NCBI GenBank assembly: GCA_044220975.1
Contig: JBGAPZ010000019.1
Coordinates: forward strand, 2,138 to 66,137
Origin: Micropepsaceae bacterium
GTDB lineage: Bacteria; Pseudomonadota; Alphaproteobacteria; Micropepsales; Micropepsaceae
Length of the DNA: 64,000 nt
Direction: 5' to 3'
The position numbers and the translations under genes were made by a program. The notes beneath the pieces are model-generated. The model searched no databases. It saw only the letters and a program-made list of their open reading frames with translations, and was not told the DNA's origin. Shown here one piece after another: positions 4,591 through 26,691 of this stretch; position 1 is the first letter of the stretch, and each line of letters begins with the position of its first letter.

Positions 4591-4594
4591 AATT

Positions 4595-10870: not shown

Positions 10871-11767
10871 CTAAGGCCTCCCGGCGTGCGGCGCGTCGAC
10901 GGTGGCAATAAGGATTTTGCCCTTTGGCTCGTGCGCGACTTCGTGGGGGAGCGAGCTTGGCGCGGTAAGCATAAATAGCGTCTTGCCGTCTTCTCCGCCA
11001 AGCATGCAAGCGTAGCAGGGCGCCTCGGTCGCGATGACCTCAACGACTTTGCCGCCGTGCGCGACGCGGTAGCACTCGGGTGCAAGGGGGTTGGCCACCC
11101 AGATCGCGCCTTCGGCGTCCAAGCAAATGCCATCGGGAATGCGCGGCCAGAGCGAGGCCCATTCACGGCGGTTCGAAAGCGTACCGTTCGCGCCAATGTC
11201 GAACGCCGTGAGGCAGCCGCCAAGGGTTTCGCCAACGATCAGTGTCTTACCATCCGGCGTGATCACCGTTCCGTTCGGGAAATGCATGTCGCTTGCCACG
11301 ACGCTGACCGTGCCGTCGTGTTGCACCAGCGTGAGTTTTGCTGCGACGTGGTCGGCGATGACGCTTTCGGCGCCCCGCTTCGTAAGTTCCGTGTCCAGGT
11401 CGAAGCCGAAATTCCCGACATAAGCGCGGCCTTCGCTGTCCACGACCATGTCATTGCAATACCAGGTCGCAATGCCGTTCAGGTCGGCGTGGACACTCAT
11501 TTGGCCAACGGGCGTACGGCGCAAAAGCTTTCGTTTTTCCATAGAAACGATCAGCATGTCGCCGTTCGGCATCCAGCCTAAGCCCGAGGGGCGATCGTCG
11601 ATCGTGAACTCCGTTCGCACGTCGCCGCTCAAGGAAACGGATTTCACCGCATGGGCGAAGAAATCGGAAAACCAAAGCCGCCCGTCATGCCAACGCGGAC
11701 CTTCGCCGAAGTAAATGCCAGTACATAGCGTGCGGGTTTCGCGGGGCATGCTTGTCTCCTTGGGCAT
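10871..11767 (-). CDS. SMP-30/gluconolactonase/LRE-family protein
   Basis: FGEGPRWHDGRLWFSD and the beta-propeller repeat pattern. Confidence 0.85.
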   Translation of the reverse strand: MPKETSMPRETRTLCTGIYFGEGPRWHDGRLWFSDFFAHAVKSVSLSGDVRTEFTIDDRPSGLGWMPNGDMLIVSMEKRKLLRRTPVGQMSVHADLNGIATWYCNDMVVDSEGRAYVGNFGFDLDTELTKRGAESVIADHVAAKLTLVQHDGTVSVVASDMHFPNGTVITPDGKTLIVGETLGGCLTAFDIGANGTLSNRREWASLWPRIPDGICLDAEGAIWVANPLAPECYRVAHGGKVVEVIATEAPCYACMLGGEDGKTLFMLTAPSSLPHEVAHEPKGKILIATVDAPHAGRP

Positions 11768-12373
11768 TCAAGATGGTAGTGCGCCTCTGCGCAGGCCTTC
11801 GATGAATGTGTTTACGGTGAGGTCGGCGATTCGTGCAGGTTTTGCGCGGCCGGCCGGGTCGAGCCAGGTGTGCATCCAGTTGATCATGCCGAAATAGAGC
11901 ATTGTCGCCGGGCGTTTCAACGCGGGCTGGCGAGCGAGGTCTGGCCGCAGCGCGACCAAAGTTTCTTCTACGATGTCGATAAGGCGGCGCTGAATCGCGA
12001 CGATCGTTTTGCGTTGTTGGTCGCCCAGATGGCGCAACTCATTAACGAGGACGCGCTGATTGCTGGCGGCGCCGAGATAGAGTTGAATGAAGCGGCGCGT
12101 CAGCGTGCGCAGCTTTTCGTCGGGTGGGAGCTTTTTCGCTGCGATCTCTTCGGCGGCGTCGAGCAAGGCTTTCACGTGGTCGTGCATCGCGTCGAACAGG
12201 ATATCCTCTTTCGAGGCGTAGTAGTGATAGAGCAGCGACTTTGACGTACCGCAGGCTTCCGCCACTTCGCTGATCGATGTCCCGTGAAAGCCATGATCGG
12301 CAAAGAGGGCTGAGGCCTTCGCGACGATTTCGCCGCGGCGTTTCTCGTAGTTTTCAGCCTGTGTGCGCGCCAT
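11768..12373 (-). CDS. TetR/AcrR-family transcriptional regulator; candidate PaaR-type repressor
   Basis: HTH signature FADHGFHGTSISEVAEACGTSKSLLYHYYASKEDIL. I chose the ATG at 12373. It is divergent from the E1 gene, with a dyad operator between them. Confidence 0.85.
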   Translation of the reverse strand: MARTQAENYEKRRGEIVAKASALFADHGFHGTSISEVAEACGTSKSLLYHYYASKEDILFDAMHDHVKALLDAAEEIAAKKLPPDEKLRTLTRRFIQLYLGAASNQRVLVNELRHLGDQQRKTIVAIQRRLIDIVEETLVALRPDLARQPALKRPATMLYFGMINWMHTWLDPAGRAKPARIADLTVNTFIEGLRRGALPS

Positions 12374-12396
12374 TGTGGGCGCACTATAGCGGTTGA

Positions 12397-12419
12397 AAAT
12401 TGACCGTCCATTCGGTTTA
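12397..12419. promoter_or_regulatory. Operator-like dyad, site 1: AAATTGACCGTCCATTCGGTTTA
   Basis: ACCG-N6-CGGT core in the 94-bp divergent TetR/E1 intergenic region. Its first 13 nt are identical to site 2. Confidence 0.55.
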
Positions 12420-12467
12420 TTAATCGGGCTTCCGCAACCCTTGTCGATCCACTGAGAAAGTTCTTCG

Positions 12468-14552
12468 ATGTCCATCGCGATGCCGAAGCGCACCGGCACA
12501 TCCGAAAACCGCGTTGACGGCGAGGTCGATTGGCGGCGCGTCGCGTGGCTGACGCATGCTTCGCGGGCGCTCGACGAACTCGAAGAAACGAAGCTCGTTC
12601 CGGAGCGGAAGATTTTCTACCAGTTTTCCGCGCGCGGGCACGACGTTGCGCAGGTGCTGCTCGGGCTACAGCTCACGAATAAGAACGATGCTATTTGCGG
12701 ATACTATCGCTCGCGACCGATTTTGCTCGCGCTCGGTGTGTCGATTGCGGATGCGCTGGGGTCGTCCATGGCGCGGGCAGGCGGATATTCCGATGGGCGC
12801 GATATCGGCGCTGTTTTCAACTATCCCAACAGCAATGGCCCGTCGGCGCTGCCGATGTGCGGTGGCGTCGGCGCGCAGTACACGCCGACCGCGGGTTGGG
12901 CGCAGGCCCTTGAGTACCGGCGCTCGGTGTTGAACGATCGCGCGTGCGACGGTGCGATTGCAGTCGCGCTCGGCGGCGACGGATCTGTGGCGACGAACGG
13001 GTTTTGGGCGTCGCTCAATATGGCGTCGGTGTTGCGGTTGCCGATGCTGTTCTACATCGAAGACAATGGCTACGGCATTTCGGTGCCGGGCTCGTTGCAG
13101 ACGCCAGGCGGCGACATCGCGGCGAACTTGAAGGCCTTCAAACAGCTTTCGGTGATTGCGGGTGACGGAACGGATCCTGCCGAAACAGGTGCTCTGATCA
13201 AGGATGCGGTGCGCCAGGTGCGCGAGCGTCGTGGACCTGCGTTGCTTCGGTTGACGGTCCCGCGGCTTGAGGGACATTCGTTTCAAGACACGCAGACATA
13301 TAAGTCCGCGGACACGATCGCGGCCGAGAAGGCGCGTGATCCGCTGCCGAAGTTGCGTGAGCATCTGGTGCCGGCGGTGATCGACGCCGCCGAATGGGAT
13401 CGCATCGCCGCCGATGCGAGGGGCGCGGTCGAAGGTGCGCGCCGCGAGGCGGAGGCGCGGCCGGTCGCCGATCTGGCGCGGACAGCGCGGCATGTGTTCT
13501 GCGAGGGCGAGATGCAGGCGATGGGCGGGCAGGCGACGCACGGTTACGTTTCGCCGCGCACAACGCCCACGGCGCAGGGCGAGGGTCAGCGCATCAATAT
13601 GGTGACGGCGATCCGGCGAACGCTGGAGCAGGAACTCAGCATCAATCCGCGCGTGGTCGTGTTCGGCGAAGACGTGGGCCCGAAGGGCGGCGTGCATGCG
13701 GTGACGTTGGGCTTACAGGAGAAGTTCGGCCTCGCACGCGTATTCGACACGTCGCTCTCCGAAGAGGGGATCATCGGGCGTGCGGTCGGGATGTCGCTCG
13801 CCGGGCTCATGCCTGTGCCGGAGATTCAATTCCGCAAATACGCCGATCCTGCGACGGAGCAGATCAACGACTGCGGGACGATGCGCTGGCGGACGAACAA
13901 CAGGTTCGCGGCGCCCATGGTCGTTCGCATGCCGATCGGGTTCTTCAAATGCGGCGATCCCTGGCACAGTCAGACGAACGAGGTGCAATACGTACATGCG
14001 CCGGGCTGGAAGGTGGCCGTACCGTCGAATGCGGAAGACGCTGTTGGGTTGTTGCGCACGGCGCTCAGGGGCAACGATCCGGTGATGTTCTTCGAGCACC
14101 GCGCCATGCTCGATGCGCCGAGCGCGCGCAAGCCTTATCCCGGTGACGATTTCGCATTGCCGTTCGGCGAAGCGCGCGTAACACGCGAGGGTAATGACCT
14201 CACGATCGTCACTTGGGGTGCGATGGTAGAGCGTTGCGAGGAAGCGGCTGAGGGGCAGTCGGTCGAGATTATCGATTTGCGCACGTTGGCGCCTTGGGAC
14301 CGCGATGCGGTCGTCGCGTCGGTGAAGCGCACGCGACGCTGCCTGATCGTGCATGAGGATTTGATCACGGCGGGGTTTGGGGCGGAGATTGCTGCAGTCG
14401 TCGCGGAGAGCGCTTTCCTCGACCTCGATGCGCCGATCTCTCGCCTTGCGATGCCCGACATACCAAGCCCCCATAATCCCGCGCTGATGGAATGGGCGCT
14501 GCCATCGGTGGACGGCATTCGTACGAAGATCGAAGCGCTGGTGGGCTTCTGA
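12468..14552 (+). CDS. 2-oxoacid dehydrogenase E1 component, fused alpha+beta subunits (TPP-dependent)
   Basis: 694-aa protein. The N-terminal half is E1-alpha-like and the C-terminal half is E1-beta/transketolase-like (VVFGEDVGPKGGV...). The stop overlaps the E2 start. Confidence 0.85.
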   Translation: MSIAMPKRTGTSENRVDGEVDWRRVAWLTHASRALDELEETKLVPERKIFYQFSARGHDVAQVLLGLQLTNKNDAICGYYRSRPILLALGVSIADALGSSMARAGGYSDGRDIGAVFNYPNSNGPSALPMCGGVGAQYTPTAGWAQALEYRRSVLNDRACDGAIAVALGGDGSVATNGFWASLNMASVLRLPMLFYIEDNGYGISVPGSLQTPGGDIAANLKAFKQLSVIAGDGTDPAETGALIKDAVRQVRERRGPALLRLTVPRLEGHSFQDTQTYKSADTIAAEKARDPLPKLREHLVPAVIDAAEWDRIAADARGAVEGARREAEARPVADLARTARHVFCEGEMQAMGGQATHGYVSPRTTPTAQGEGQRINMVTAIRRTLEQELSINPRVVVFGEDVGPKGGVHAVTLGLQEKFGLARVFDTSLSEEGIIGRAVGMSLAGLMPVPEIQFRKYADPATEQINDCGTMRWRTNNRFAAPMVVRMPIGFFKCGDPWHSQTNEVQYVHAPGWKVAVPSNAEDAVGLLRTALRGNDPVMFFEHRAMLDAPSARKPYPGDDFALPFGEARVTREGNDLTIVTWGAMVERCEEAAEGQSVEIIDLRTLAPWDRDAVVASVKRTRRCLIVHEDLITAGFGAEIAAVVAESAFLDLDAPISRLAMPDIPSPHNPALMEWALPSVDGIRTKIEALVGF

Positions 14553-15703
14553 TGGCCGACATCATTGTTCCTGCCGAGCAGGAAGGCACGACGGCGGTCG
14601 TGAAGAATTGGCTGAAGAAAGTTGGCGAGACGGTGCGCATCAACGATCCGCTGGTCGAGATCGAGACCGATAAGGTCGCAGTCGAAATCGCGGCGACGGC
14701 GGACGGGGTTCTGTCGGAGATCCTGCTCGACGAGGGCGCCGAAGTGGAGCCTGGCACGGTGCTCGGGCGCATTGCGAGCGGTGTCGGCGTTCAAGAAACC
14801 AAATCCGCGCCCAAGTCCGCGACGCGAAGTGCTGCGGTCCAGCCACGTTCCGCGGGCGATCAGTTGCCGCCAGGCGTTCGGCGAATGCTTGCCGAGCATA
14901 GCCTTGAGGCGGGCGACGTTCCGGTCAGCGGCGATCGCCTGACGCGCGAAGACATTCAGGCATTCGTCGATGCGCGCGCGAAAGCTGCGCCGGGACCGGC
15001 CCCGCACGGTGTCACGCGGATGCCGCACGATTCCATGCGCAAGCGGATTGCCGAACATCTTTCGCAATCCGTGCGTACCGCCCCGCATGTGACCGCCGTG
15101 TTCGAAGCGGATTTCTCGGCCATCATTGCGCACAGGAACGCACACAAATCCGCGTTCGAAAAGACGGGCGCCAATTTGACGTTCACGGCGTATTTTGTTG
15201 TGGCGTGCGTGGCGGCGATGAAGGTGGCGCCTGCCGTGAACGGGCGATGGTTCGACGACCGCATCGAGATCGCGGACGACATCAATATCGGTATCGGGAC
15301 CGCGCTGGGCGAGAAGGGGTTGATCGTTCCGGTTATTCACAAAGCGCAAGCGTTGTCGCTGCTCGAGGTTGCAAAGCAGCTGAGCGATCTGACCGAACGC
15401 GCGCGGTCGGGAAAGCTTTCGCCAGCGGACGTGCGCGACGGGACATTTTCGATCTCGAACCACGGCGTTTCCGGCTCGCTTGTTGCGTCGCCCATCATCA
15501 TCAACCAACCGCAGTCCGCGATCTTAGGTGTGGGTAAGCTTCAGAAGCGCGTGGTGGTGCGCGAAGCCGGCGGAGTTGATAAGATAGAAATCCGCCCAAT
15601 GGCCTATGTGTCGCTCACGATCGATCATCGCGTGATCGATGCGTTTCAAACGAACGCGTGGTTGACGCGGTTCGTCGAGATGCTGGAGACATGGGCGGAC
15701 TAG
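14552..15703 (+). CDS. Dihydrolipoamide acyltransferase (E2) with lipoyl, E3-binding and catalytic domains
   Basis: Lipoyl motif EIETDKV, a peripheral-subunit-binding segment (PPGVRRMLAEHSL), and catalytic DHRVIDA. Confidence 0.9.
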   Translation: MADIIVPAEQEGTTAVVKNWLKKVGETVRINDPLVEIETDKVAVEIAATADGVLSEILLDEGAEVEPGTVLGRIASGVGVQETKSAPKSATRSAAVQPRSAGDQLPPGVRRMLAEHSLEAGDVPVSGDRLTREDIQAFVDARAKAAPGPAPHGVTRMPHDSMRKRIAEHLSQSVRTAPHVTAVFEADFSAIIAHRNAHKSAFEKTGANLTFTAYFVVACVAAMKVAPAVNGRWFDDRIEIADDINIGIGTALGEKGLIVPVIHKAQALSLLEVAKQLSDLTERARSGKLSPADVRDGTFSISNHGVSGSLVASPIIINQPQSAILGVGKLQKRVVVREAGGVDKIEIRPMAYVSLTIDHRVIDAFQTNAWLTRFVEMLETWAD

Positions 15704-15714
15704 GAGCAAGACGA

Positions 15715-16929
15715 ATGGCACAGCCACACATTCAAGCCGTGACGCCCTCGCTGTTCGGCGCGTTGAAGACGCAGCCGCAGGACCCTTTGCTGGCACTGAT
15801 GGCGGAGTTCCGAAACGACCCGCGCGAGGGGAAGATCGACCTCGGCGTCGGGATGTATCGCGATGCGACCGGCATCACGCCGGTCATGCGAGCCGTGAAG
15901 GCGGCCGAGCGTATCTTGCTCGAGACGCAAACGACCAAAGGCTACATGGGGACGGAAGGCGATTTTGTGTTCGTCGATTTGCTGAAGCCGATCGTCTTCG
16001 GCGAGGCGGTTGCGAAAAGCGATCGGATCGTGGGGCTGCAAACGCCTGGCGGTACGGGCGCGTTGCGCCTTGGGGCTGAGTTGATTGCGGCGGTCAGGCC
16101 GCGCGCGAAGGTGTGGCTCGGCGAGCCGACCTGGCCGAACCATCGGCCGCTTCTCAATGCGGCGCGGCTTGCGGTCGAAGGGTTCAAGCATTTCGACAAG
16201 GCGGCGCAAACGCTGCCTTTCGACGAGACGGTGGGGGCACTCAATCGCGCGGAGCCAGGCGACATCGTCGTTCTGCAAGCGTGTTGTCACAACCCAACGG
16301 GCGCCGACTACAGCATTGAGCAGTGGCGTGTCATTGCGGAGATGTTTGCGAAGCGGGGTCTCGTGCCTTTTTTCGACTTTGCCTACCAAGGCCTCGGCGA
16401 TGGGTTGGATGCGGATGCCAAAGGCATGCGCCTCGTCCTTGACCACGTGGATGAGGCGCTGATCGGTTATGCGAGCGACAAGAATTTCGGCGTCTATCGC
16501 GAGCGCGTCGGCGCGTTGTTCGTGATGGCTAACAATGGACGCGCTGCGAGTGCCGCGTACACGCAGGCGCAGGCGCTCGCGCGCGCGAACTGGTCGATGC
16601 CGTCGGATCACGGCGCCGCGGTGGTGCGGCTGGTGCTGCAATCGGCGGAACTTACGCGGGATTGGAAAGCAGAGCTCGACGGCATGCGAGCGCGCATTCT
16701 GAGCAACCGCGCCCGGCTTGCGGCGCTCAATCCTCGGCTCAGTGCGGTCGAGCAACAGCGCGGCATGTTCAGCCAAATTCAGATCGCGCCGGAGGCGGTG
16801 GCCCGTCTAAAAGACGAACATGCGGTCTACATTGTGGGCTCGGGCCGAATGAATGTCGCCGGCTTCCGCGACGATGGCGAGGTCGTTCGGTTCGCCAAAG
16901 CGCTAGCTTCAGTGAACGGCGACGGCTAA
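15715..16929 (+). CDS. Class I aromatic/aspartate aminotransferase (TyrB/AspC-like)
   Basis: FRNDPREGKIDLGVGMYRD and ...SKNFGVYRERVG (PLP-Lys region). RBS AGGAG lies before the ATG at 15715. Confidence 0.9.
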   Translation: MAQPHIQAVTPSLFGALKTQPQDPLLALMAEFRNDPREGKIDLGVGMYRDATGITPVMRAVKAAERILLETQTTKGYMGTEGDFVFVDLLKPIVFGEAVAKSDRIVGLQTPGGTGALRLGAELIAAVRPRAKVWLGEPTWPNHRPLLNAARLAVEGFKHFDKAAQTLPFDETVGALNRAEPGDIVVLQACCHNPTGADYSIEQWRVIAEMFAKRGLVPFFDFAYQGLGDGLDADAKGMRLVLDHVDEALIGYASDKNFGVYRERVGALFVMANNGRAASAAYTQAQALARANWSMPSDHGAAVVRLVLQSAELTRDWKAELDGMRARILSNRARLAALNPRLSAVEQQRGMFSQIQIAPEAVARLKDEHAVYIVGSGRMNVAGFRDDGEVVRFAKALASVNGDG

Positions 16930-18147
16930 CGACGCAAAGCCGCGAAAGCGGGCGCGGCGATTGCGTTTCGGCTGCTCGGTCAGTTCGTAGTTTGGGAAGC
17001 GCTTCATCCACTTGCCGAGAGCGATGCGGCCTTCCATGCGCGCGAGGTTCATGCCGGCACATTGGTGCGGGCCGGCCGCGAACGCCAAATGACGGTTTGG
17101 GGTTCGTGCAATGTCGAAGCGTTCGGCATCGGCGAATTCGTCTGGGTCGCGGTTTGCCGCGCCGATGCCGAGCGTGACGAACGTGCCCGGTTCAATCGCG
17201 AACCCGGCGATATCGGTTGCGCGCGTCGTGACGCGGTTGCCGAGCTGGTTCGAGCTTTCGTAGCGCAGCACTTCTTCGATCGCCGAACGGAGCAGCGTTT
17301 CGTTTGTGAGAAGACGCGCGCGCTCATCGCGGACGCGGTCGAACAGTTCGATCGCGTTGCCGATGAGGTTCGTGGTCGTTTCGTGGCCGGCATTCAGGAG
17401 GAAGACGCAGTTCTCAGCGAGTTCGGGACCGGAGAGCGGCTCGCCTTCGCTTTGGAGCAGCCGGGTTAAGACGTCATGGTCGGGGTCGCCCGGATGCTTG
17501 CGGCGTTCTTCGATTAGGATGTCGAGGTAGGCGTGGAAGTCGGTCAACGCTTGTTCGCCGCGCGCGAAGGCTTCGCGCGCGAGGACAGGTTCTAAAGCGC
17601 CCAGGATCGCGAGCGACCAGTCGCGCAGCGGCGCGCGATCGGCCATCGGGATTGCGAGCAGGTCGCCGATCACTTCGATGGGAATCGCGCCTGCGAAGTC
17701 CGCTATCGCATCGATTGCACGCTTGGCGGCCGCTTCGTCGAGTAGGCGGTCGACGAGGCGTTCAAGCTTCGGCTCGAGGGGCGCCAACGCTTTCGGTACG
17801 AGCGCACCCATGATCGAGCGCCGTACACGCGGGTGATACGGCGCGTCATTGAAGACGAGGCTCGTTGTGTGGTGACGAAACAGGCGTGAGTTGGTGCCGA
17901 ATTTCGGACCGAACTCAGCTTTCTTGTCGGAGGAGAACGTCGCCGTGTCCTGATAGACGGCGAGCACGTCGGCGTAGCGGCTTAGGAAGACGGCGCCATC
18001 AGGCAGGCGCATTACCGGATCGTGCTTGCGTAGCGCGCGGTAGGTTGGGAAGGGGTCGTCGTAGAAGCTGTCGGGCAATTTCTTCAGGTCGAAGATGCGG
18101 GCGAGATCGGCGTCGCTCATCCAAGGCGGCTTTCGATCCAATCCCAA
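16909..18147 (-). CDS. Cytochrome P450
   Basis: Heme-binding loop FAAGPHQCAGMNLAR, an EVLRY (ExxR) motif and an AGHETT I-helix. Confidence 0.9.
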   Translation of the reverse strand: MGLDRKPPWMSDADLARIFDLKKLPDSFYDDPFPTYRALRKHDPVMRLPDGAVFLSRYADVLAVYQDTATFSSDKKAEFGPKFGTNSRLFRHHTTSLVFNDAPYHPRVRRSIMGALVPKALAPLEPKLERLVDRLLDEAAAKRAIDAIADFAGAIPIEVIGDLLAIPMADRAPLRDWSLAILGALEPVLAREAFARGEQALTDFHAYLDILIEERRKHPGDPDHDVLTRLLQSEGEPLSGPELAENCVFLLNAGHETTTNLIGNAIELFDRVRDERARLLTNETLLRSAIEEVLRYESSNQLGNRVTTRATDIAGFAIEPGTFVTLGIGAANRDPDEFADAERFDIARTPNRHLAFAAGPHQCAGMNLARMEGRIALGKWMKRFPNYELTEQPKRNRRARFRGFASLAVAVH

Positions 18148-18869
18148 ACGGCCGCGGGCCTCTCGACCATCGCGTTGTGACCAGCGTCCGCAATTGTGAC
18201 CGCGTTGGTGTCGAAAGCACGCAGCTGGTCTTGTGTGACCATCGGGTCGGTTTCGCCGCGTGCCAGATGCGCGGGCGCACGAGCGGTGTCGATGAGCGCA
18301 CGCATCGGCGGTGCGCCGACGGTCATCGTTCGCGGATCATAGGCTAGGCGCCACCCATCGCTTTCCTGCACGACACCGGCGGCAGCGGCGGGTGAGTTCT
18401 TGCCGATCAATCCTGAGAGCCCTGCCACCTTCAGGTAGCGATCGACGGCTTCGTCCTTTGTGGTGAAGCGGCGCGCCGGGGCTGCGGCGAGGCCTTGCAT
18501 GCGGGTGAGTTCTTCGTCGCTCCACGCAACCTTGATGCCTAGGCCGAAGGCGCGCGATGGCGCGGCGCCGAAGGTGCCCGACGCCAACGCTAAGGCCACC
18601 GCACCGCCCATGGAGTGTCCGGCGACGATGATCTCGCGCCATGGGCCGTGGGATTGGATGAGCGCTGCCACGTCCGCGGCGTGATCGGCGAGCGCGTACG
18701 TCTCGCTGTGCGGAGACGCACCGTGGCCGCGTAAGTCGGGCGCTATCCAGCTGCCGCGCCAACGGCCGGTGTCCTGCATCGGCTGCCAAACGTGACGCGT
18801 GGCGCCCAAGCCGTGCAGCAGCACGATCAGCCTATCGCCAGTACCGCCACGGTCGGACGCGAGCCGCAT
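18117..18869 (-). CDS. Alpha/beta-fold hydrolase
   Basis: HGLG oxyanion region and GHSMGG nucleophile elbow. Its 3' end overlaps the P450 start by 31 nt, and it follows paaZ with no gap. Confidence 0.8.
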   Translation of the reverse strand: MRLASDRGGTGDRLIVLLHGLGATRHVWQPMQDTGRWRGSWIAPDLRGHGASPHSETYALADHAADVAALIQSHGPWREIIVAGHSMGGAVALALASGTFGAAPSRAFGLGIKVAWSDEELTRMQGLAAAPARRFTTKDEAVDRYLKVAGLSGLIGKNSPAAAAGVVQESDGWRLAYDPRTMTVGAPPMRALIDTARAPAHLARGETDPMVTQDQLRAFDTNAVTIADAGHNAMVERPAAVWDWIESRLG

Positions 18870-20888
18870 TCAAAGCGCGTTCATCGTCAGGAGTTCGTAG
18901 CTCGCGACCGGTTCTTCGTTCTGGTTCGTGAGCAGCACGGCCCAACGCACTTCGCCGTATTTGTCGGTGCGCGATGTCTTTTGCTTCACGGTGAGGTTCA
19001 CCTTGATGGTTTCGCCCGGCTTTACCGGCTTGATGAAGCGCAGGTTGTCGAGACCGTAATTCGCGAGCACGGGGCCCGGATCGGGATCGACGAACAAGCC
19101 GGCAGCGAACGAAAGCAAGAGATAGCCGTGCGCGACGCGGCCGCCGAACAGCGGGTTCGCGGCGGCGGCCTTCTCGTCCATGTGGGCGTAGAACGTGTCG
19201 CCCGTGAAGTGGGCAAAATGTTCGACATCTTCGAGCGTGATCGTGCGCGGTTTGGTGACGAGCGTGCGGCCGAGTTCCAATTCGCCGAAACGCAAGCGGA
19301 ACGGGTGCACGCTTTCGCGTTGCTCCGGCGCGCCAGGGAGCCAGTTGCTGGTGACCGCACTGATCGTTCGCGGCGACGCTTGAATCGCGGTGCGCTGCAT
19401 GTAGTGCATGACGCCTCGCAGGCCGCCCATTTCCTCGCCACCACCGGCGCGGCCCGGGCCGCCGTGAATGAGCGAGGGAAGCGGGGAGCCGTGTCCGGTC
19501 GATTCTTTCGCGCAGTCGCGGTCGATAACGACGAGACGGCCGTGGAACGAGGCTGCGCCGTCGATGACTTCGCGCACGACCTTTGGATCATGCGTGTAAA
19601 GCGACATCACGAGTGAGCCTTTGCCGCGATTGACGATGCTGACCGCTTCGGCGAGGCCGGTGTAGGGCATCAACGTGGCAACGGGGCCGAACGGTTCGAC
19701 GTCGTGAACCTTGGTCGCTGACAGAGGTTTGTCACAACGAAGCAGAGTTGGACCGATGAAACCGCCGTGGATAGGACTGGCGCCGTGTAGTTCGACCGGC
19801 TTCCCTCTTACGAGGCGCGCCTCCTCGTAGAGAATGTCAAGCTTCTGCAAAACATCTTCACGCTGTGCCAGGCTAATAAGCGGCCCCATTGTCACGCCTT
19901 CTTGGCGCGGATCGCCGACGACAACTTCGGCAAGCTGTTTCGTGAGTGCCAACTCTGCCGCGTCGACAACGTTCGCGGGGACAATGGCACGACGGATGGC
20001 GGTGCATTTCTGCCCCGCCTTCACCGTCATCTCGCGAACGACTTCTTTCACGAACAGGTCGAATTCGGGCGTGTCGGGTGCGGCATCGGGCCCGAGGACT
20101 GCCGCGTTCAGCGAGTCGCGTTCGGCGACGAAGCGCACGCTTTCACGCGCGATGCCAGGATGGCGTTGCAGCTTCTCCGCCGTCTCGGCCGAGCCTGTGA
20201 ACGAGACGACGTCTTGGCCTGTGAGATGGTCGAACAAATCCCCGATGGGACCGAGGAGGAGTTGAATCGCTCCTTTCGGGAGTACGTTCGCTTCAATGAG
20301 TACGCGGAATGCTGCTTCCGTGAGTTGGGCGCTGGCGGATGCCGGCTTGACGATTGCTGGAACGCCGGCGAGCAGCGTTGGTGCCAGTTTTTCCAGCATG
20401 CCCCATACAGGGAAATTGAAAGCGTTGATGTGAACGGCGGCGCCTTTCAGCGACGTCATCACGTGCTGGCCGATGAACGTGCCCTTTTTCGACAGGCCTT
20501 CGACCGCGCCGTCGGTCAGGATCGTGTCGTTTGGCAGCTCGCGGCGGCCTTTCGAGGCGTAAGCGAACAGCGTCCCCGCGCCGCCTTCGATGTCGATCCA
20601 GCCGTCGCTCTTCGTTGCGCCAGTGTCGTAGGAGAGCGCGTAGAGTTCGTCTTTGCGCGTCATGATGGCGTCGCCCAGCGCCTTCAGCATCTTGCCGCGG
20701 TCATGGAACGTGAGCTTGCGAAGGGCGGGGCCGCCTTCGTTTCGGGCGTGCGCGAGGATTGCAGCGAAGTCGCGAACTGTTTCGCCGAGTTGCGCAACCG
20801 GCTCACCGGTAATGGCGGACCGGATCGGCGTCATTGTCCCGCGCGGGGCGATCCAGGCATCCTGCGCGTAAGCTTGAAGCGCTTTCAT
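18870..20888 (-). CDS. paaZ: Bifunctional PaaZ (aldehyde dehydrogenase + MaoC-like hydratase; oxepin-CoA hydrolase/semialdehyde dehydrogenase)
   Basis: 672-aa protein with an N-terminal ALDH domain and a C-terminal hot-dog domain (FTGDTFYAHMD...GGRVAHG). Confidence 0.9.
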   Translation of the reverse strand: MKALQAYAQDAWIAPRGTMTPIRSAITGEPVAQLGETVRDFAAILAHARNEGGPALRKLTFHDRGKMLKALGDAIMTRKDELYALSYDTGATKSDGWIDIEGGAGTLFAYASKGRRELPNDTILTDGAVEGLSKKGTFIGQHVMTSLKGAAVHINAFNFPVWGMLEKLAPTLLAGVPAIVKPASASAQLTEAAFRVLIEANVLPKGAIQLLLGPIGDLFDHLTGQDVVSFTGSAETAEKLQRHPGIARESVRFVAERDSLNAAVLGPDAAPDTPEFDLFVKEVVREMTVKAGQKCTAIRRAIVPANVVDAAELALTKQLAEVVVGDPRQEGVTMGPLISLAQREDVLQKLDILYEEARLVRGKPVELHGASPIHGGFIGPTLLRCDKPLSATKVHDVEPFGPVATLMPYTGLAEAVSIVNRGKGSLVMSLYTHDPKVVREVIDGAASFHGRLVVIDRDCAKESTGHGSPLPSLIHGGPGRAGGGEEMGGLRGVMHYMQRTAIQASPRTISAVTSNWLPGAPEQRESVHPFRLRFGELELGRTLVTKPRTITLEDVEHFAHFTGDTFYAHMDEKAAAANPLFGGRVAHGYLLLSFAAGLFVDPDPGPVLANYGLDNLRFIKPVKPGETIKVNLTVKQKTSRTDKYGEVRWAVLLTNQNEEPVASYELLTMNAL

Positions 20889-20897
20889 AAAGGCCTC

Positions 20898-21689
20898 CTA
20901 GCGGCCAGTGAAGTTCGGCGTTCGCTTTTCGCCAAAGGCGGCGACGCCCTCTTTGTAGTCGTGACTGCGGCCGAGATCGCGCTGCAGATCGCGCTCGAGA
21001 TCGAGTTGCGCGTCGAGCGATTGCGACCAACTCTTGCGGATCGCGAGTTTCGTGGCACCGAGGCCTTTCGTCGGACCGTTGGCCAAGCGCTCGACCAACT
21101 TCGTCGCTTCGGTCTGCAGATCCACGTCGTCGACGGCGCGCCAGATCAAGCCCCACGCTTCGGCCTTCTCGGCGCTCAGTGGTTCGCCGGTCAGGGCGAG
21201 CGCCATGGCGCGCGGTTGGCCGGCGAGGCGCGGCAATATCCACGTGCCGCCGGAGTCGGGCACGAGACCGATGTTCGCGAACGCTTGGATGAAGCGGGCG
21301 CTCCTTGCAGCGAGAACGATGTCGGCGGCGAAGGCGATGTTCGCGCCGGCGCCTGCGGCGACACCGTTGACCGCACACACGACGGGCTTTGGCAATGCAA
21401 CGAGGCGGCGGACGAGCGGGTTGTAGCGGTTCTCGAGCGACTCGCCGAGGTCGACGCCAGCGGCTCCCGGTGCGACGGCGCGATCGGACAAATCTTGGCC
21501 GGCGCAAAATCCGCGACCCGCACCCGTGATCAGCAACGCGCGGATGTCGGGATTGCGCTCGACGGCGGTCAGCGCCTCAGCGATCTCGGCATGCATTTGC
21601 ACATTGAAACTGTTCAACCGGTCAGGGCGGTTCAGCGTCAAACGCGCCGCGTTGTTGGTCAGATCAAACAGGATGGTTTCGTAAGACAT
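20898..21689 (-). CDS. paaG: Crotonase-family PaaG-like 1,2-epoxyphenylacetyl-CoA isomerase
   Basis: LTLNRPDRLNSF...GAGRGFCAGQDL, in paa context. Confidence 0.8.
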   Translation of the reverse strand: MSYETILFDLTNNAARLTLNRPDRLNSFNVQMHAEIAEALTAVERNPDIRALLITGAGRGFCAGQDLSDRAVAPGAAGVDLGESLENRYNPLVRRLVALPKPVVCAVNGVAAGAGANIAFAADIVLAARSARFIQAFANIGLVPDSGGTWILPRLAGQPRAMALALTGEPLSAEKAEAWGLIWRAVDDVDLQTEATKLVERLANGPTKGLGATKLAIRKSWSQSLDAQLDLERDLQRDLGRSHDYKEGVAAFGEKRTPNFTGR

Positions 21690-21750
21690 GCCGCCACCTC
21701 CCAGGGGTGTCGCGGGTTGGCCCCGCGCTCTTGTGTGCTACGCTTTAGGG

Positions 21751-21773
21751 TAGAACGCGCGGACGGTCAATTT
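21751..21773. promoter_or_regulatory. Operator-like dyad, site 2 (minus-strand reading AAATTGACCGTCCGCGCGTTCTA)
   Basis: It lies in the divergent paaG/paaI intergenic region and shares a 13-nt identity with site 1. Confidence 0.5.
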
Positions 21774-21786
21774 CAGGACGGATCAC

Positions 21787-22221
21787 ATGTCGAACGCTTC
21801 GGATGCGCTCGCGCGCCGGGTTGCAGACCATATGCTCGCTCAAGAAGGAACCGGGCGTCATTGGGGGATTTCGATCGAAGAGGCACGCGAAGGTTATGCG
21901 CGGATTTCGATGGTGGTCCGCGCGGACATGCTCAACGGACATCGCATCGCGCATGGCGGCATGATCTTCGCCCTGGCGGATACGGCGTTCGCCTATGCGT
22001 GCAACTCGCGCAACGTCTCGACGGTTGCCCAGCAGGCATCCATATTGTTCATGGCCCCTGCTCTGGAAGGCGCACGATTGATCGCCGAAGCGCGGGAAGA
22101 AGCTGTCGCTGGACGTTCGGGTGCGTACGTGGTGACAGTGCGCACGACGGAGGGCGAAAACATCGCGGTGTTTCAAGGGCTTTCGCGCTCGCTTGGCGGC
22201 GCAATGCTCCCCGGCAATTAA
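21787..22221 (+). CDS. paaI: PaaI-type hot-dog thioesterase (hydroxyphenylacetyl-CoA thioesterase)
   Basis: NGHRIAHGGMIFALADTAFAYA motif, in paa context. Confidence 0.8.
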   Translation: MSNASDALARRVADHMLAQEGTGRHWGISIEEAREGYARISMVVRADMLNGHRIAHGGMIFALADTAFAYACNSRNVSTVAQQASILFMAPALEGARLIAEAREEAVAGRSGAYVVTVRTTEGENIAVFQGLSRSLGGAMLPGN

Positions 22222-22241
22222 TTGACCGATCGGTCGGCTTA
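22219..22241. promoter_or_regulatory. Operator-like dyad, site 3: TAATTGACCGATCGGTCGGCTTA
   Basis: It overlaps the paaI stop and lies about 40 nt upstream of paaA. It contains the perfect 12-bp palindrome GACCGATCGGTC (22224-22235). Confidence 0.55.
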
Positions 22242-22283
22242 TTCTACATTTCACTTGATGTTCGTTGAGGAAATCGCGCGGTC

Positions 22284-23282
22284 ATGTACACCACCGAACT
22301 GAAGGACAAGAACCAGAAATCGGCGCCCGTCACGACCGTGGCGGAGGATCCGGTGAAGCTTGCCGCGTTCGAAGCGCGGGTGGCGGCGGATGATTTCATC
22401 GAGCCCAAAGATTGGATGCCTGAGGCCTATCGCAAAACGCTGGTGCGGCAGATTTCGCAGCACGCGCACTCAGAGATCGTGGGCATGTTGCCTGAAGGCA
22501 ATTGGATCACGCGCGCGCCGAGTTTGCGGCGCAAGGCCGTGTTGCTCGCCAAGGTGCAAGATGAGGGTGGGCATGGGCTCTATCTCTACGCTGCGGCCGA
22601 GACGCTGGGCACGAGCCGCGACGAGATGATCGAAGCACTGCATTCGGGCCGCGCGAAGTATTCTACGATCTTCAACTATCCGACGTTGACCTGGGCGGAC
22701 ATCGGCGCGATCGGCTGGCTGGTCGACGGCGCCGCGATTTTGAACCAAGTGCCGCTGCAGCGGACGTCGTACGGCCCGTACGCGCGCGCGATGGTGCGGA
22801 TTTGCAAGGAAGAGAGTTTCCATCAGCGCCAAGGCTACGAGATCATGATGGTGCTGGCCGGCGGTTCGCTGGAGCAGAAGCGTCTGGCGCAGAACGCGCT
22901 CGATCGTTGGTGGTGGCCGTCGCTCATGATGTTCGGGCCGCCGGACGAGAACTCGCCGAACACGGCGCAATCCGTGCGGTGGCGAATCAAGCGCGAGACG
23001 AACGACGAACTACGGCAGAAATTCGTCGACGTGACAGTGCCGCAAGCTGAGGCAATCGGGCTCACCATTCCCGATCCGAGGCTCAAGTGGAACGAGGCGC
23101 GGGGATCTTACGATTTCGGCGAAATTGACTGGGACGAGTTCTATGCGGTCGTGCGCGGCGAAGGACAGGTCGCAAAGGAGCGCATGAAGGCACGCGTCGA
23201 AGCGTGGGAGAGCGGCGCGTGGGTGCGAGAGGCCGCGAACGCCCATGCAGCGAAGCGTACGCGTCGCGCAGCGGCGGAGTGA
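22284..23282 (+). CDS. paaA: Phenylacetyl-CoA 1,2-epoxidase catalytic subunit PaaA
   Basis: Di-iron ferritin-like oxygenase sequence (HAHSEIVG...EESFH) at the head of the paaABCDE order. Confidence 0.9.
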
Positions 23283-23287
23283 TCGTC

Positions 23288-23572
23288 ATGTCCAAGGAAT
23301 GGCCCCTTTGGGAAGTGTTCGTGCGGGCGAAGAACGGGCTCGCACACAGGCACGTGGGCAGCGTACACGCCGCCGACGAGCGTATGGCGATCGAAGCTGC
23401 GCGCGACACCTATACACGGCGGATGGAGGGCGTGAGTCTTTGGGTCGTACGGTCGGCTGATATCATCGCTTCCGATCCGGGTGAGGGCGCTGCGTTGTTC
23501 GACCCGGCGGCGGACAAGGTTTATCGCCATCCGACGTTTTATTCGATCCCCGAGAACGTAAAGAACATCTGA
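23288..23572 (+). CDS. paaB: Phenylacetyl-CoA epoxidase subunit PaaB
   Basis: EWPLWEVFVRAKNGLAHRHVGSVHA is typical of PaaB. I chose the ATG at 23288. Confidence 0.9.
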   Translation: MSKEWPLWEVFVRAKNGLAHRHVGSVHAADERMAIEAARDTYTRRMEGVSLWVVRSADIIASDPGEGAALFDPAADKVYRHPTFYSIPENVKNI

Positions 23573-24318
23573 TGGCCGAAGCCGTTCACGAATATGCGGT
23601 GCGCCTCGGCGACGACAGTCTGATTTTAGGCCAGCGGCTTTCCGAGTGGTGTGGCCATGCGCCGATGCTTGAGGTCGATCTTTCGCTGGCCAACATCGCG
23701 CTCGATCTTGTCGGGCAAGCAACGCTGTTCCTGAAGCTTGGCGGTGAAGGGCGGGGTATCGACGCGGATAAACTCGCGTTTCATCGCGACGTGCTCGACT
23801 TCAAGAACTGCCTCTTGGTCGAGCAGCCAAACGGCGACTTTGCGCAGACGATTGCGCGGCAATTCTTGTTTTCGAACTGGCAGGAGCTTTTGTTCCGGGA
23901 ACTTGTGCGCTCGAACCATGAGACGATCGCGGCGATTGCGGCCAAGGCGGTGAAAGAGGTCGCCTATCACGCGCGATTTGCGAACGAGTGGATTGTGCGG
24001 CTCGGCGACGGCACAGCGGAAAGCCGGGAGCGCATCGTCAATGGGCTCGAGTGGGTTTGGCGATTTGGCGACGAGTTGTTCGAGGTGGATAGTGTCGTCG
24101 AACCTCTGATCGCCTCAGGCGTTGCAGCCGATGTGCGCAGCCTGCGCCCAGAATGGGATGCGCGGATCGCCCGGACTTTGGCCGAAGCGACGCTGGAGCT
24201 ACCGAAACCCCGGCGCGCGGCTCTGGGCGGACGGATAGGGCATCACTCCGAGCACCTTGGCCATATTCTGTCCGCGATGCAGTTTCTGCCGCGGGCCTAC
24301 CCGGGTGCCCAGTGGTGA
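23572..24318 (+). CDS. paaC: Phenylacetyl-CoA epoxidase subunit PaaC
   Basis: 248-aa ferritin-like subunit between paaB and paaD. Confidence 0.85.
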   Translation: MAEAVHEYAVRLGDDSLILGQRLSEWCGHAPMLEVDLSLANIALDLVGQATLFLKLGGEGRGIDADKLAFHRDVLDFKNCLLVEQPNGDFAQTIARQFLFSNWQELLFRELVRSNHETIAAIAAKAVKEVAYHARFANEWIVRLGDGTAESRERIVNGLEWVWRFGDELFEVDSVVEPLIASGVAADVRSLRPEWDARIARTLAEATLELPKPRRAALGGRIGHHSEHLGHILSAMQFLPRAYPGAQW

Positions 24319-24794
24319 GCGTCGTGCAGACCGCATCGCTCAAGGATCGTGTGCTTGAGGTATTGTCACACGTGCCCGATCCTGAGATTCCGTGCATCTC
24401 CGTCGTCGATCTCGGTATCGTGCGAGACGTGCGGGACGATGCGGTCGTCATCACGCCGACATACACCGGGTGTCCTGCGACGATTACGATTGAGGCTGCG
24501 ATCCGGGGCGAGCTTGATCGTGCGGGGTTCTCACGGCTGACGATCGAGACGGCGCTGGCACCGGCCTGGACGACAGATTGGATCAGCGATGCGGGACGCG
24601 AGATGCTTCGCGCATACGGAATTGCGCCGCCACCGAAGGGCGCTGGGCGGGCGAGCTTGCGCGACGATGCTCAGTGCCCGCGCTGCGGTTCAGCGCGGAC
24701 TGAGGAGATAAGCCGGTTCGGTTCGACGCCGTGTAAGGCGTTGCATCGGTGCTTGAGTTGCGGCGAACCGTTTGACCTTTTCAAGTGTCACTGA
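24312..24794 (+). CDS. paaD: Phenylacetyl-CoA epoxidase subunit PaaD
   Basis: VPDPEIPCISVVDLGIV...TYTGCPA and a C-terminal CPRCGS...C..C motif. The GTG start at 24312 overlaps the paaC stop; the start is approximate. Confidence 0.85.
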   Translation: MVSVVQTASLKDRVLEVLSHVPDPEIPCISVVDLGIVRDVRDDAVVITPTYTGCPATITIEAAIRGELDRAGFSRLTIETALAPAWTTDWISDAGREMLRAYGIAPPPKGAGRASLRDDAQCPRCGSARTEEISRFGSTPCKALHRCLSCGEPFDLFKCH

Positions 24795-24798
24795 GCCG

Positions 24799-25878
24799 AT
24801 GTCCATCAACGCGGGCTTTCATCGTTTGACAGTTGCCGAGGTTCGCCGCGAGACGGCGGATGCGGTTTCCATTCGCTTCGATGTGCCGGCCCAGTTGCGC
24901 GAAGCGTTCGCCTTTCGCGCGGGGCAGCATTTGACGTTGAAGGCCGACATTGGTGGCGAGGACGTGCGGCGGACCTATTCGTTATGCGTTGCGCCATCGG
25001 ACGGCGAGTTCCGCATCGCGATCAAGACGATGCCGGGCGGGCGGTTTTCGACGTGGGCGAATAGCCAGATCAAAGCGGGACAAACGCTTGAAGTGCTGCC
25101 GCCGATGGGCCGCTTCGTCATGCCCGACGGCGTGCGGGCGCCGTACTACGTGGCGCTTGCGGGTGGGTCGGGCATCACGCCGGTCATTTCGATCCTGAAG
25201 ACGGCGCTGCAGGAGATAGCGCACGCGCGCGCGACGTTGCTCTACGGTAATCGAGATAGCGCTTCGATCATTTTCTTGGAGGAGCTTGCGGCCTTGAAGA
25301 ATCGGTTTCTCGACCGGCTTGAGGTCTATCACTTTCTCGAAAACGAGGCTGAGGAGATTGAGCTGTTCAACGGGCGGCTCGACGCCACGAAGTGCGACGA
25401 GGTTTTTTTCACGCTTGTCGATGTCGCGAGTGCCGATGCGTTCTTTATCTGCGGGCCGGAACCGATGATGGACGCGGCGGAGGCGGCGCTTGTCGCGCGC
25501 GGTGTGCCGGCGTCGAAGATATTGATCGAGCGCTTCACGACGAGCGCGCTTTCCGCGGAACAGATCGAGCGAATGCGCGCCTTGGAAGAGCGGGCGGCGG
25601 GCACGATGTTGACGGTGACACTGGACGGGCGGCGGTCGAAAATCGCCTTCGATGCGGCCAAGGGCAATATTCTCGAAAGCGTTCAAGCGGCGGGATTGCC
25701 GGCGCCTTATGCCTGCAAGGGTGGTGTGTGCACGACATGCCGGGCGCGCGTAACCTCGGGCACTGTCGAAATGAAGAAGAACTATGGCTTGAGCGAAGAA
25801 GAAGTGGCTGACGGCTATGTGCTGACGTGCCAAGCTATTCCGACAAGTGCGGACGTCACGCTGAACTACGACGCCTAA
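24799..25878 (+). CDS. paaE: Phenylacetyl-CoA epoxidase reductase subunit PaaE (FNR-like domain + plant-type 2Fe-2S)
   Basis: RTYSL FAD motif, GGSGITP NAD motif and a C-terminal CKGGVCTTC...C ferredoxin motif. Confidence 0.9.
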   Translation: MSINAGFHRLTVAEVRRETADAVSIRFDVPAQLREAFAFRAGQHLTLKADIGGEDVRRTYSLCVAPSDGEFRIAIKTMPGGRFSTWANSQIKAGQTLEVLPPMGRFVMPDGVRAPYYVALAGGSGITPVISILKTALQEIAHARATLLYGNRDSASIIFLEELAALKNRFLDRLEVYHFLENEAEEIELFNGRLDATKCDEVFFTLVDVASADAFFICGPEPMMDAAEAALVARGVPASKILIERFTTSALSAEQIERMRALEERAAGTMLTVTLDGRRSKIAFDAAKGNILESVQAAGLPAPYACKGGVCTTCRARVTSGTVEMKKNYGLSEEEVADGYVLTCQAIPTSADVTLNYDA

Positions 25879-25899: not shown

Positions 25900-26691
25900 A
25901 TGACCTACGAAGACATTCTCTATGACGTGCGCAGTCACGTCGCGACGATCACGCTGAACCGGCCGAAGGTGTACAACGCCTTTCGGCCGAAGACGTGCGT
26001 GGAATTGCTCGACGCGTTTGCGAAGGCGGGGTGGGACAACGACATCGGCGCGATCGTTCTAACCGGCACGGGGCCGAAGGCGTTTTGCACGGGCGGCGAT
26101 CAGTCGGACAAAGACGGGCAGTACGGCGACGGTTCGACGCGCGGGCCGGTCGGCATGCCGATCGACGAGGTACACTCGATCATCCGCGATGTGCCGAAGC
26201 CGGTGGTGGCGAAGGTTAGGGGGTTTGCGATCGGCGGCGGCAACGTGCTCGCCACGCTCTGCGATTTGACGCTGGCTTCGGAGACGGCGGTCTTCGGGCA
26301 AGTTGGGCCCAAGATGGGGTCGGTCGATCCAGGTTTCGGAACCGCATATCTCGCGCGCGTGGTCGGCGAGAAGAAGGCGCGTGAGATGTGGTACCTGTGC
26401 CGGCGCTACACGGCGCAGGAAGCGATGGCGATGGGCCTCGTCAATGCGGTGTTTCCCGACGATCAGCTGGACGCGGCGTGCGATGCGTGGTGCGCAGAAC
26501 TCGTGGAGAAGAGCCCGACCGCGATTGCGCTCGCCAAGAAGTCGTTCAATGCGGACACCGAAAGCATCCGCGGAATCGGCGGGCTCGCGTTCCAGGCGCT
26601 GAAGCTCTACTACGGCACGGCGGAGTCGAAGGAAGGCGGGGCCGCGTTCCGCGAGAAGCGGCCGCCGAATTTTCGAAAGTTCGTCGAGTAG
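25900..26691 (+). CDS. Crotonase-superfamily enzyme, MenB/BadI-like
   Basis: ITLNRPKVYNAFRP...GPKAFCTGGDQS resembles the naphthoate-synthase/BadI branch. It follows paaE after 21 nt. Confidence 0.75.
   Translation: MTYEDILYDVRSHVATITLNRPKVYNAFRPKTCVELLDAFAKAGWDNDIGAIVLTGTGPKAFCTGGDQSDKDGQYGDGSTRGPVGMPIDEVHSIIRDVPKPVVAKVRGFAIGGGNVLATLCDLTLASETAVFGQVGPKMGSVDPGFGTAYLARVVGEKKAREMWYLCRRYTAQEAMAMGLVNAVFPDDQLDAACDAWCAELVEKSPTAIALAKKSFNADTESIRGIGGLAFQALKLYYGTAESKEGGAAFREKRPPNFRKFVE

Follow-up and report, generated by a model that had tools for sequence, protein, structure and literature searches.

Gene organization and three related dyads

The DNA analysed here, referred to as the window, is a stretch of 64,000 nt from a Micropepsaceae bacterium (contig JBGAPZ010000019.1, positions 2,138 to 66,137). 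It contains a cluster of paa genes, a gene for a TetR-family regulator, designated TetR1, that is divergent from an operon for a 2-oxoacid dehydrogenase, and three closely similar dyads in the promoter regions of these genes, which are the subject of this analysis. Three 23-mers had been reported in an initial annotation, and direct reading of the window sequence located all of them at the positions given there. Site 1 is AAATTGACCGTCCATTCGGTTTA (12397-12419, plus strand), site 2 is AAATTGACCGTCCGCGCGTTCTA (minus strand of 21751-21773), and site 3 is TAATTGACCGATCGGTCGGCTTA (22219-22241, plus strand). The gene calls and the gene context of that annotation also agreed with NCBIfam and Pfam scans. 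Site 1 is located 23 nt upstream of the ATG of TetR1 (12373, minus strand) and 48 nt upstream of the ATG of the E1 gene (12468). Site 2 is found 61 nt upstream of paaG (start at 21689, minus strand) and 13 nt upstream of paaI (21787), while site 3 begins on the stop codon of paaI (22219-22221) and ends 42 nt before paaA (22284).

Sites 1 and 2 share their initial 13 nt, AAATTGACCGTCC, as had been stated before. A common core, ACCG-N6-CGGT, had been assigned to all three sites as well. They do represent one type of dyad, but the exact core is present in site 1 only; site 2 has ACCG-N6-CGTT and site 3 ACCG-N6-CGGC, one base off in each case. The complete element is a 24-bp palindrome, AATTGACCG-N6-CGGTCAATT, located at 12398-12421, 21749-21772, and 22220-22243. 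These three elements are designated O1, O2, and O3. O1, AATTGACCGTCCATTCGGTTTATT, in the 94-bp gap between the divergent TetR1 and E1 genes, is the top-scoring site of the window with 36.0 bits in one matrix and 34.6 bits in an independently trained matrix (see below). O3, AATTGACCGATCGGTCGGCTTATT, extends from the second base of the paaI stop codon to a position about 40 nt before paaA, includes the perfect inner palindrome GACCGATCGGTC, and yields 31.1 and 27.7 bits, respectively. O2 in the divergent gap of paaG and paaI reads AATTGACCGTCCGCGCGTTCTACC on the paaG strand. Its right half is degenerate, and its scores are 16.5 and 13.0 bits.

Conservation of the dyad

The occurrence of an exact 13-mer in two promoter regions had been taken to be unlikely by chance. 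This argument did not hold, since the window harbors 487 such pairs, compared to about 300-360 in first-order Markov simulations. Likewise, the pattern TTGACCG-N6-CGG with up to one mismatch was not enriched in the window (14 seen, 9.2 expected), and the 13-mer with two mismatches allowed was uninformative there. As the simple 13-mer argument is weak, significance was drawn from an independent matrix and from phylogenetic footprinting. The matrix, built to avoid circularity, was made from 28 sites between E1 and TetR genes, taken only from genomes with a TetR protein of at most 68% identity. Scanning the window with this matrix placed the three sites at the top (34.6, 27.7, and 13.0 bits), followed by the next independent match with 8.7 bits; an overlapping frame of site 3 reached 14.3 bits. 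The maximum averaged 8.7 bits over 200 simulated windows, and 0.16 matches of at least 12 bits were obtained per window. Judged from these sequence scores, O2 is marginal alone; the case for it comes from the conservation of its position in other genomes.

For footprinting, 80 loci encoding relatives of TetR1, from 94% down to 37% identity, were collected with up to 10 kb of flank each (1.39 Mb in total), and the proteins of the window were placed on them by tblastn. Conservation of the motif at orthologous promoters, on which the initial annotation had made its proposal depend, was detected in dozens of genomes. Searching for ACCG-N6-CGGT with up to one mismatch revealed a site in nearly all gaps between E1 and TetR genes, invariably with the form AAT(T/A)AACCG-N6-CGGTC(A/G)ATT and a variable centre. 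Similar sites are also present between paaI and paaG and upstream of paaA. The 24-bp consensus, AATTGACCGACCGGTCGGTCAATT, contains the core ACCGACCGGTCGGTC, and its information content is high in the arms and near zero at the outer positions of the central six nucleotides. Applying a threshold of 12 bits to the 80 loci, 109 matches were obtained, 98 of them in the three promoter classes (46 upstream of TetR1, 27 upstream of paaG or paaZ, and 25 upstream of paaA) and none inside mapped genes. A site is present in 41 of the 43 gaps between E1 and TetR genes, and in 19 of 24 loci it is found 40-57 nt upstream of paaA.

Two MAFFT alignments gave a consistent picture. Among 20 diverged gaps between E1 and TetR genes (alignment A1), the flanks of the dyad are invariant or nearly so, while the central six nucleotides vary. 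The dyad is the chief conserved block between the two start codons, followed by a short conserved tail resembling TTCAAC. In the gap between paaI and paaG (alignment A2), the dyad is again the chief conserved block and has a variable centre; conservation extends to a TAA resembling a -10 box and to a hairpin in the leader. O2 is found about 65 nt before paaG; both this position and the variant right half-site, CGTTCTAT, recur in many genomes.

Two loci served as negative controls. In the paa cluster of Escherichia coli, which is regulated by PaaX, the best score was 7.0 bits and no match to the dyad was detected. The promoter region of the E1-E2 orthologue in Sinorhizobium meliloti has no site either, the best score of that locus being 9.8 bits within a coding gene. 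Plasmid 1 of Paracoccus denitrificans PD1222 and plasmid pLA3 of Novosphingobium pentaromativorans harbor a TetR1 homologue in a paa cluster and the dyad at paa promoters. In the annotated isolates, the motif is located in the gap between paaN and paaG, upstream of pcaF-paaA, or upstream of both paaA and paaG.

TetR1 and its putative operators

TetR1 (11768..12373, minus strand) is a protein of 201 amino acids with matches to the Pfam families TetR_N (5.8e-16) and TetR_C_24 (1.9e-20), the architecture of an N-terminal helix-turn-helix domain combined with a C-terminal domain for ligand binding and dimerisation. Among solved structures, 59 TetR proteins were matched with E values below 1e-5, the closest being 3ccy (2e-41), and the acyl- or aryl-CoA-binding regulators FadR, KstR2, and MbdR are among these relatives. 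Where the TetR_N (helix-turn-helix) match has its C-terminal end, TetR1 homologues share a conserved segment, SKSL(L/I)YHY. Orthologues with 42-94% identity are located beside paa genes in Micropepsaceae, Caulobacteraceae, Terricaulis, and Sphingomonadales, and linkage to paa genes is conserved across taxa according to the tblastn maps of the 80 loci and the annotated Paracoccus and Novosphingobium plasmids. While the gene layout of the window is kept throughout Micropepsaceae and Rhizomicrobium, the orthologue is found directly after, or convergent to, paaE in several loci from Sphingomonadales and Caulobacteraceae, and 1-2 kb from paaE in Terricaulis and HN_bin10.

In Burkholderia cenocepacia, a 15-bp inverted repeat, ACCGACCGGTCGGTT, is located between -35 and -10 of the promoters PpaaA and PpaaZ and is needed for repression (PMC2770484, PMC9493321). 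This operator was validated by mutagenesis and electrophoretic mobility shift assays; it is bound by the TetR-type regulator PaaR, which is released by phenylacetyl-CoA (PMC2770484, PMC9493321). The consensus core ACCGACCGGTCGGTC is identical to this operator at 14 of 15 positions, and the 15-nt core of O3 at 13 of 15. In the window, palindromes matching a validated PaaR operator are present in predicted core promoters of paa genes, and the earlier suggestion of one PaaR kind of operator common to the TetR/E1, paaG/paaI, and paaA promoters is supported by the conserved dyad and by the core match. The initial annotation had likened the dyads to actinobacterial PaaR operators; the match documented here is with the proteobacterial one. 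From these data it appears likely, with a probability of roughly 80%, that the three sites are operators of a PaaR-type repressor of the TetR family encoded at 11768-12373. The putative assignment to PaaR is drawn from the operator core, the linkage to paa genes, and the TetR architecture.

The arrangement shares several features with that of B. cenocepacia, where PaaR (BCAL0210; operators at PpaaA, PpaaZ, and PpaaH) is also specified by a TetR-family gene at the paa cluster. Several TetR1 orthologues directly follow paaE, comparable to the order paaABCDE-BCAL0211-BCAL0210. In both organisms the operators are core promoter elements that fall between -35 and -10 or cover them; each genome has several, one of them near the unit of the regulator. 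There are also differences. The host of the window is an alphaproteobacterium (Micropepsaceae, Rhizomicrobium-like), the conserved element spans 24 bp with AT-rich AATT arms, and the sites between E1 and TetR genes lack the inner overlapping repeat. Furthermore, the regulator of the window is divergent from, and shares its operator with, a 2-oxoacid dehydrogenase-aminotransferase operon, and such an operon is not described for Burkholderia.

Other PaaR proteins resemble TetR1 to different degrees. [quoted passage not shown] The C. glutamicum motif reportedly has an ACCG-NNCGNN-CGGT core with an equal N6 spacing. The putative PaaR motif of S. pristinaespiralis is listed as AACGA-N4-TCGGT, unlike the dyad of the window. 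PaaR of Thermus thermophilus (TTHA0973) is a TetR-family paa repressor which is released by phenylacetyl-CoA and auto-regulated, as proposed for TetR1, but its operator, CNAACGNNCGTTNG or AACnAACGTTnGTT, is different, consisting of 14 bp with AACG half-sites in closer spacing. PaaX of E. coli and Pseudomonas follows the same logic, being a repressor of paa promoters released by phenylacetyl-CoA, but it belongs to an unrelated protein family (GntR) and recognizes a different operator.

Regulation of paa genes of the PaaR type is already established in Burkholderia, Thermus, and Corynebacterium, and the regulatory principle is known. It has also been predicted in Alphaproteobacteria (PMC13186573), and a comparative study of PaaR is cited in PMC3840689. 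The accessions of the Paracoccus and Novosphingobium TetR proteins had no match in the supplement of a 2026 paa survey. The results presented here show conservation of the Burkholderia-type PaaR operator across Alpha- and Betaproteobacteria and provide a well supported regulon reconstruction for an uncultured lineage of soil Alphaproteobacteria (Rhizomicrobium/Micropepsaceae). Recruitment of a 2-oxoacid dehydrogenase-aminotransferase operon into the PaaR regulon is the newer element and a moderately interesting extension.

The location of the dyads relative to predicted promoters is suggestive of a mechanism. A consensus scan predicted the paaA promoter at 22222..22250 (plus strand; -35 TTGACC, spacer of 17 nt, -10 TACATT, 9 of 12 matches), and its -35 box and spacer fall inside O3. 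At paaG, alignment A2 shows a conserved block of TTGACC, 17 nt, and TAA(A/G)nn, so that O2 covers the -35 box and the spacer. The TetR1 promoter was predicted by the same kind of scan at 12383..12410 (minus strand), with the -35 box TGGACG in the centre of O1, a spacer of 16 nt, and the -10 box TATAGT. This -10 box ends 10 nt before the ATG, and the relatives in alignment A1 have a TA-rich element at equal distance; given this short distance, the transcript is probably leaderless or nearly so. O1 is located 48 nt from the ATG of E1 within a gap of only 94 bp, and any E1 promoter there must therefore overlap the operator or read through it.

According to the proposed mechanism, a dimer of TetR1, possibly two dimers, would bind the 24-bp palindrome. 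As its left half-site contains the TTGACC (-35) of the paaA and paaG promoters, and as the centre of O1 overlaps the repressor's own -35 box, bound repressor could sterically block RNA polymerase at four transcription units. These would be TetR1 itself together with an SMP-30-like gene, resulting in auto-repression, the E1-E2-aminotransferase operon, the paaG-paaZ-hydrolase-P450 operon, and paaI/paaABCDE-crotonase. Binding of phenylacetyl-CoA to the C-terminal domain may then release the repressor. Physical binding, effector, and dimer stoichiometry are proposed in analogy to characterised PaaR systems. As to the SMP-30, hydrolase, P450, and crotonase genes, it is their tight operon spacing that suggests membership in the regulon, and this varies between lineages.

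A number of points weigh against the interpretation of the sites as PaaR-type operators. The related loci were all gathered via the TetR gene, and co-occurrence of motif and TetR is therefore partly built into the sample. The matrix for the 80 loci was trained on sites of the same loci, which makes part of the match count circular; given this circularity, the lack of matches elsewhere is more informative than the counts per promoter class. Only 23 of 43 upstream regions of paaG reach 12 bits, O2 itself is a weak site (13-16.5 bits), and for E1 no promoter with a convincing sigma-70 -10 box was found. NCBIfam has no model for PaaR, and every match of TetR1 in this collection stays far below its cut-off, the best being the SACE_7040 family with 77.8 bits at a cut-off of 250. 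Homologues with about 35% identity are not always linked to paa genes. The one from Variovorax is part of a different acyl-CoA cluster, and the one from Ralstonia is encoded about 6 kb from paaE in a locus where the motif was not found. These Ralstonia and Variovorax plasmid loci had been considered as a bridge to BCAL0210, but in view of the distance to paaE and of the other acyl-CoA cluster they do not prove orthology.

Among alternative explanations, the dyads could be operators of a TetR1 protein that senses phenylpyruvate, another aryl- or acyl-CoA, or phenylalanine, and that is primarily a regulator of E1-E2, the paa genes being recruited secondarily. It would fit such a role that TetR1 is always divergent from E1-E2 in Micropepsaceae, that the Caulobacteraceae loci L045-L047 have no paa gene within 10 kb, and that more distant homologues accompany other clusters (CoA-ligase or acyl-CoA) in which related motifs occur (L070-L076; Variovorax L085 with a 14.8-bit site). 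However, in Sphingomonadales and Paracoccus the orthologue and the motif are present in paa clusters without E1-E2. Phenylacetyl-CoA is, in addition, the only metabolite common to all variants of the regulon and the documented effector of PaaR proteins with the same operator core. A different effector is thus considered unlikely, although it is the most probable of the alternatives.

Clearly less probable is binding of the dyads by another regulator, such as a second TetR protein (TetR2, 28388-29002) or an unlinked factor. The TetR2 gene is located about 1.7 kb past the end of the paa operon, but the protein shares only 18% identity with TetR1, its C-terminal domain is of another type (TetR_C_13), and it is associated with a distinct palindrome of its own, which scores 8.7 bits in the paa matrix. 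On these grounds TetR2 was rejected as the dyad-binding protein. Moreover, the dyad has stayed with TetR1 orthologues in spite of several rearrangements of the genes. The least probable explanation, by a small step, is that the shared sequence reflects nothing but promoter architecture, namely an A-tract, a -35 box TTGACC, and a GC-rich spacer. The identical 13-mer indeed consists of an A-tract and a near-consensus -35 hexamer, and the frequency of exact 13-mer pairs as well as the missing enrichment of TTGACCG-N6-CGG, both given above, would fit this case. Promoter architecture does not account, however, for a second half-site, CGGT(C/T)AATT, whose conserved sequence is the reverse complement of the first half-site, in contrast to the six variable nucleotides between the two. 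Nor does it explain why the dyad is present on the TetR side too, where TTGACC is out of the -35 position, or why its core matches a mutationally validated operator.

The E1-E2-aminotransferase operon

The strongest and most conserved operator serves the operon for a fused E1, E2, and an aromatic aminotransferase. The first gene (12468..14552, plus strand) encodes a fused E1 alpha-beta protein of a 2-oxoacid dehydrogenase, matching the NCBIfam models for pyruvate dehydrogenase (PDH) E1 alpha and beta. Its homologues carry PF00676, PF02779, and PF02780, and the relatives in the PDB are E1 subunits of PDH and of branched-chain 2-oxoacid dehydrogenase. The start of the second gene (14549..15703, plus strand) overlaps the E1 stop codon. 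It specifies an E2 dihydrolipoyl acyltransferase with matches to SucB- and PDH-type E2 models; the SucB-like NCBIfam match reaches 270 bits, below the equivalog cut-offs. The last gene (15658..16929, plus strand) encodes an aromatic amino acid aminotransferase (NCBIfam PRK09257, 470 bits at a cut-off of 377). By these model matches, a thiamine pyrophosphate-dependent E1 (alpha plus beta) and a lipoyl-bearing E2 are both present. A dedicated E3 was not found, the E1-E2 operon containing no E3 gene, and the sole E3-like match in the window is located at 62431-63483 with 36% identity. A shared housekeeping E3 would suffice, and the lack of an E3 gene in the operon is compatible with function.

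At loci where the TetR gene lies elsewhere, the E1-E2 operon is still syntenic with paa genes. One example is L048, in which paaZ is followed by the genes for the aminotransferase, E2, and presumably E1 in convergent direction; the sequence of this locus ends inside E2. The aromatic aminotransferase in the operon, the PaaR-type operator, and the synteny with paa genes point to phenylpyruvate as the possible substrate. The simplest reading suggested by this context is that the aminotransferase would give phenylpyruvate, which E1-E2 with a shared E3 would convert to phenylacetyl-CoA. Phenylacetyl-CoA could then be both substrate of the pathway and inducer, creating a positive feedback loop. It is tentatively proposed, with a chance somewhat below even, that E1-E2-aminotransferase constitutes a dedicated lipoamide-dependent phenylpyruvate dehydrogenase module. 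This module would lead from phenylalanine to phenylacetyl-CoA without free phenylacetate or PaaK and would be wired to PaaR in Micropepsaceae and some Caulobacterales as an entry with positive feedback. If true, an aerobic, CoA-conserving route from phenylalanine to phenylacetyl-CoA would be added, and a widespread fused-E1 enzyme, annotated as 'pyruvate dehydrogenase', '2-oxoisovalerate dehydrogenase', or 'transketolase C-terminal domain protein', would gain a testable function.

PglB/PglC of S. pristinaespiralis are E1-type subunits named phenylpyruvate dehydrogenase, and their genes are in one operon with an aminotransferase gene (PMC10685826). According to a separate review, L-phenylglycine can arise from phenylacetyl-CoA. 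PglB/PglC may be regarded as a precedent for the function proposed here, and they were the only precedent found in literature searches for a phenylpyruvate dehydrogenase complex, for SMb20019/20, and for GapMind notes. In contrast to these biosynthetic proteins, which serve L-phenylglycine formation, the operon of the window has a catabolic context, a fused E1 alpha/beta gene, an E2 gene, and a PaaR operator. Searching for E1 homologues yielded only close Rhizomicrobium relatives without functional information. On pSymB of S. meliloti (L084, CP140934.1, 25607-28824), an E1 orthologue with 73% identity is encoded together with E2, divergent from an Lrp/AsnC regulator. Neither paa genes nearby nor a PaaR-type site were found at this locus, which is a caveat to phenylpyruvate as substrate. 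With an Lrp/AsnC protein instead of a TetR protein as partner, the same enzyme pair appears to be under different regulators in different lineages.

As a separate observation, a Caulobacteraceae metagenome-assembled genome (L050, 7328-8818) contains a 22-bit PaaR-type site preceding a gene for dihydrolipoyl dehydrogenase (E3). This gene is located immediately upstream of the TetR1 orthologue, beside paaE.

The paa operons and other genes of the window

The paa genes were identified by NCBIfam. On the minus strand, paaG (20898-21689), paaZ (18870-20888), an alpha/beta hydrolase gene (18117-18869), and a cytochrome P450 gene (16909-18147) are tightly packed and form one operon read from O2 (16909..21689), the gene order of which is kept in relatives. 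The plus strand carries paaI (21787-22221), paaA (22284-23282), paaB (about 23300-23572), paaC (23572-24318), paaD (about 24315-24794), and paaE (24772-25878), followed by a gene for a BadI/MenB-like crotonase (25900-26691), which scores 433 bits at a BadI cut-off of 467. The crotonase after paaE and the hydrolase and P450 after paaZ are unusual passengers of paa operons; many loci from Micropepsaceae have kept the hydrolase-P450 pair.

In most Rhizomicrobium relatives (L008, L011, L012, L023, and others), paaK is located between paaZ and the hydrolase gene, its product being 52-59% identical to PaaK of P. denitrificans. The window and its closest relatives (L003, L005, L007, L009, L058) lack paaK at this position, which is consistent with a PaaK-independent route to phenylacetyl-CoA. 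Across the whole 64-kb window, PaaK, PaaJ, and PaaH were not detected by tblastn, and most of the large open reading frames up to about 56 kb revealed no further paa genes or sites.

The leader of paaG contains a small GC-rich hairpin, CGCGGG-GCCAA-CCCGCG (21711-21727, minus strand), between the promoter and the Shine-Dalgarno sequence GGGAGGTGG. Some of the Micropepsaceae loci share this hairpin, with one compensatory pair, G-C to A-U, in L005 and L058.

An SMP-30/gluconolactonase-like gene (10871..11767, minus strand; Pfam SGL) directly abuts TetR1 and is probably co-transcribed with it. This adjacency is restricted to the closest relatives (L001, L002, L003, L058).

Distant TetR1 homologues with 32-41% identity are present in Rhodocyclales (L070, L072, L074-L076) and on a Variovorax plasmid (L085). 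Their genes precede a PaaK-like CoA ligase paralogue (278 bits at a cut-off of 646) or a MaoC/enoyl-CoA hydratase cluster. L085 and four of these Rhodocyclales loci have a related dyad in between, for example AGTTGACCGCTCGGTCGGCCTATG or AATATTCCGTCTGGAAGGTTTATT; the fifth, L074, has no match of at least 12 bits. Judging by these gene neighbourhoods, the TetR1 subfamily seems to control several aryl- and acyl-CoA pathways.

TetR2 (28388-29002, minus strand) is of the TetR_C_13 type. Its start is preceded at a distance of 7 nt by AACATACCGACTGGTTGGTATGTT (29009-29032), a palindrome of 8+8+8 nt with the structure AACATACC-N8-GGTATGTT. This element is probably the operator of TetR2 itself and distinct from the paa dyad.

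Elsewhere in the window, a gene for a DnaE2-type error-prone polymerase of 1160 amino acids is preceded by a Y-family ImuB-like gene and an open reading frame of 327 amino acids without Pfam match (42512-48277, minus strand), an arrangement that looks like an imuA-imuB-dnaE2 mutagenesis cassette. Genes for a MIP-family channel, a low-molecular-weight phosphatase (ArsC-like), and a glyoxalase-family protein are found in a row at 3925-5544 (minus strand), resembling an arsenic-resistance cluster, and a gene for an AcrB-type resistance-nodulation-division pump (423-3569, plus strand) is located upstream of this row.

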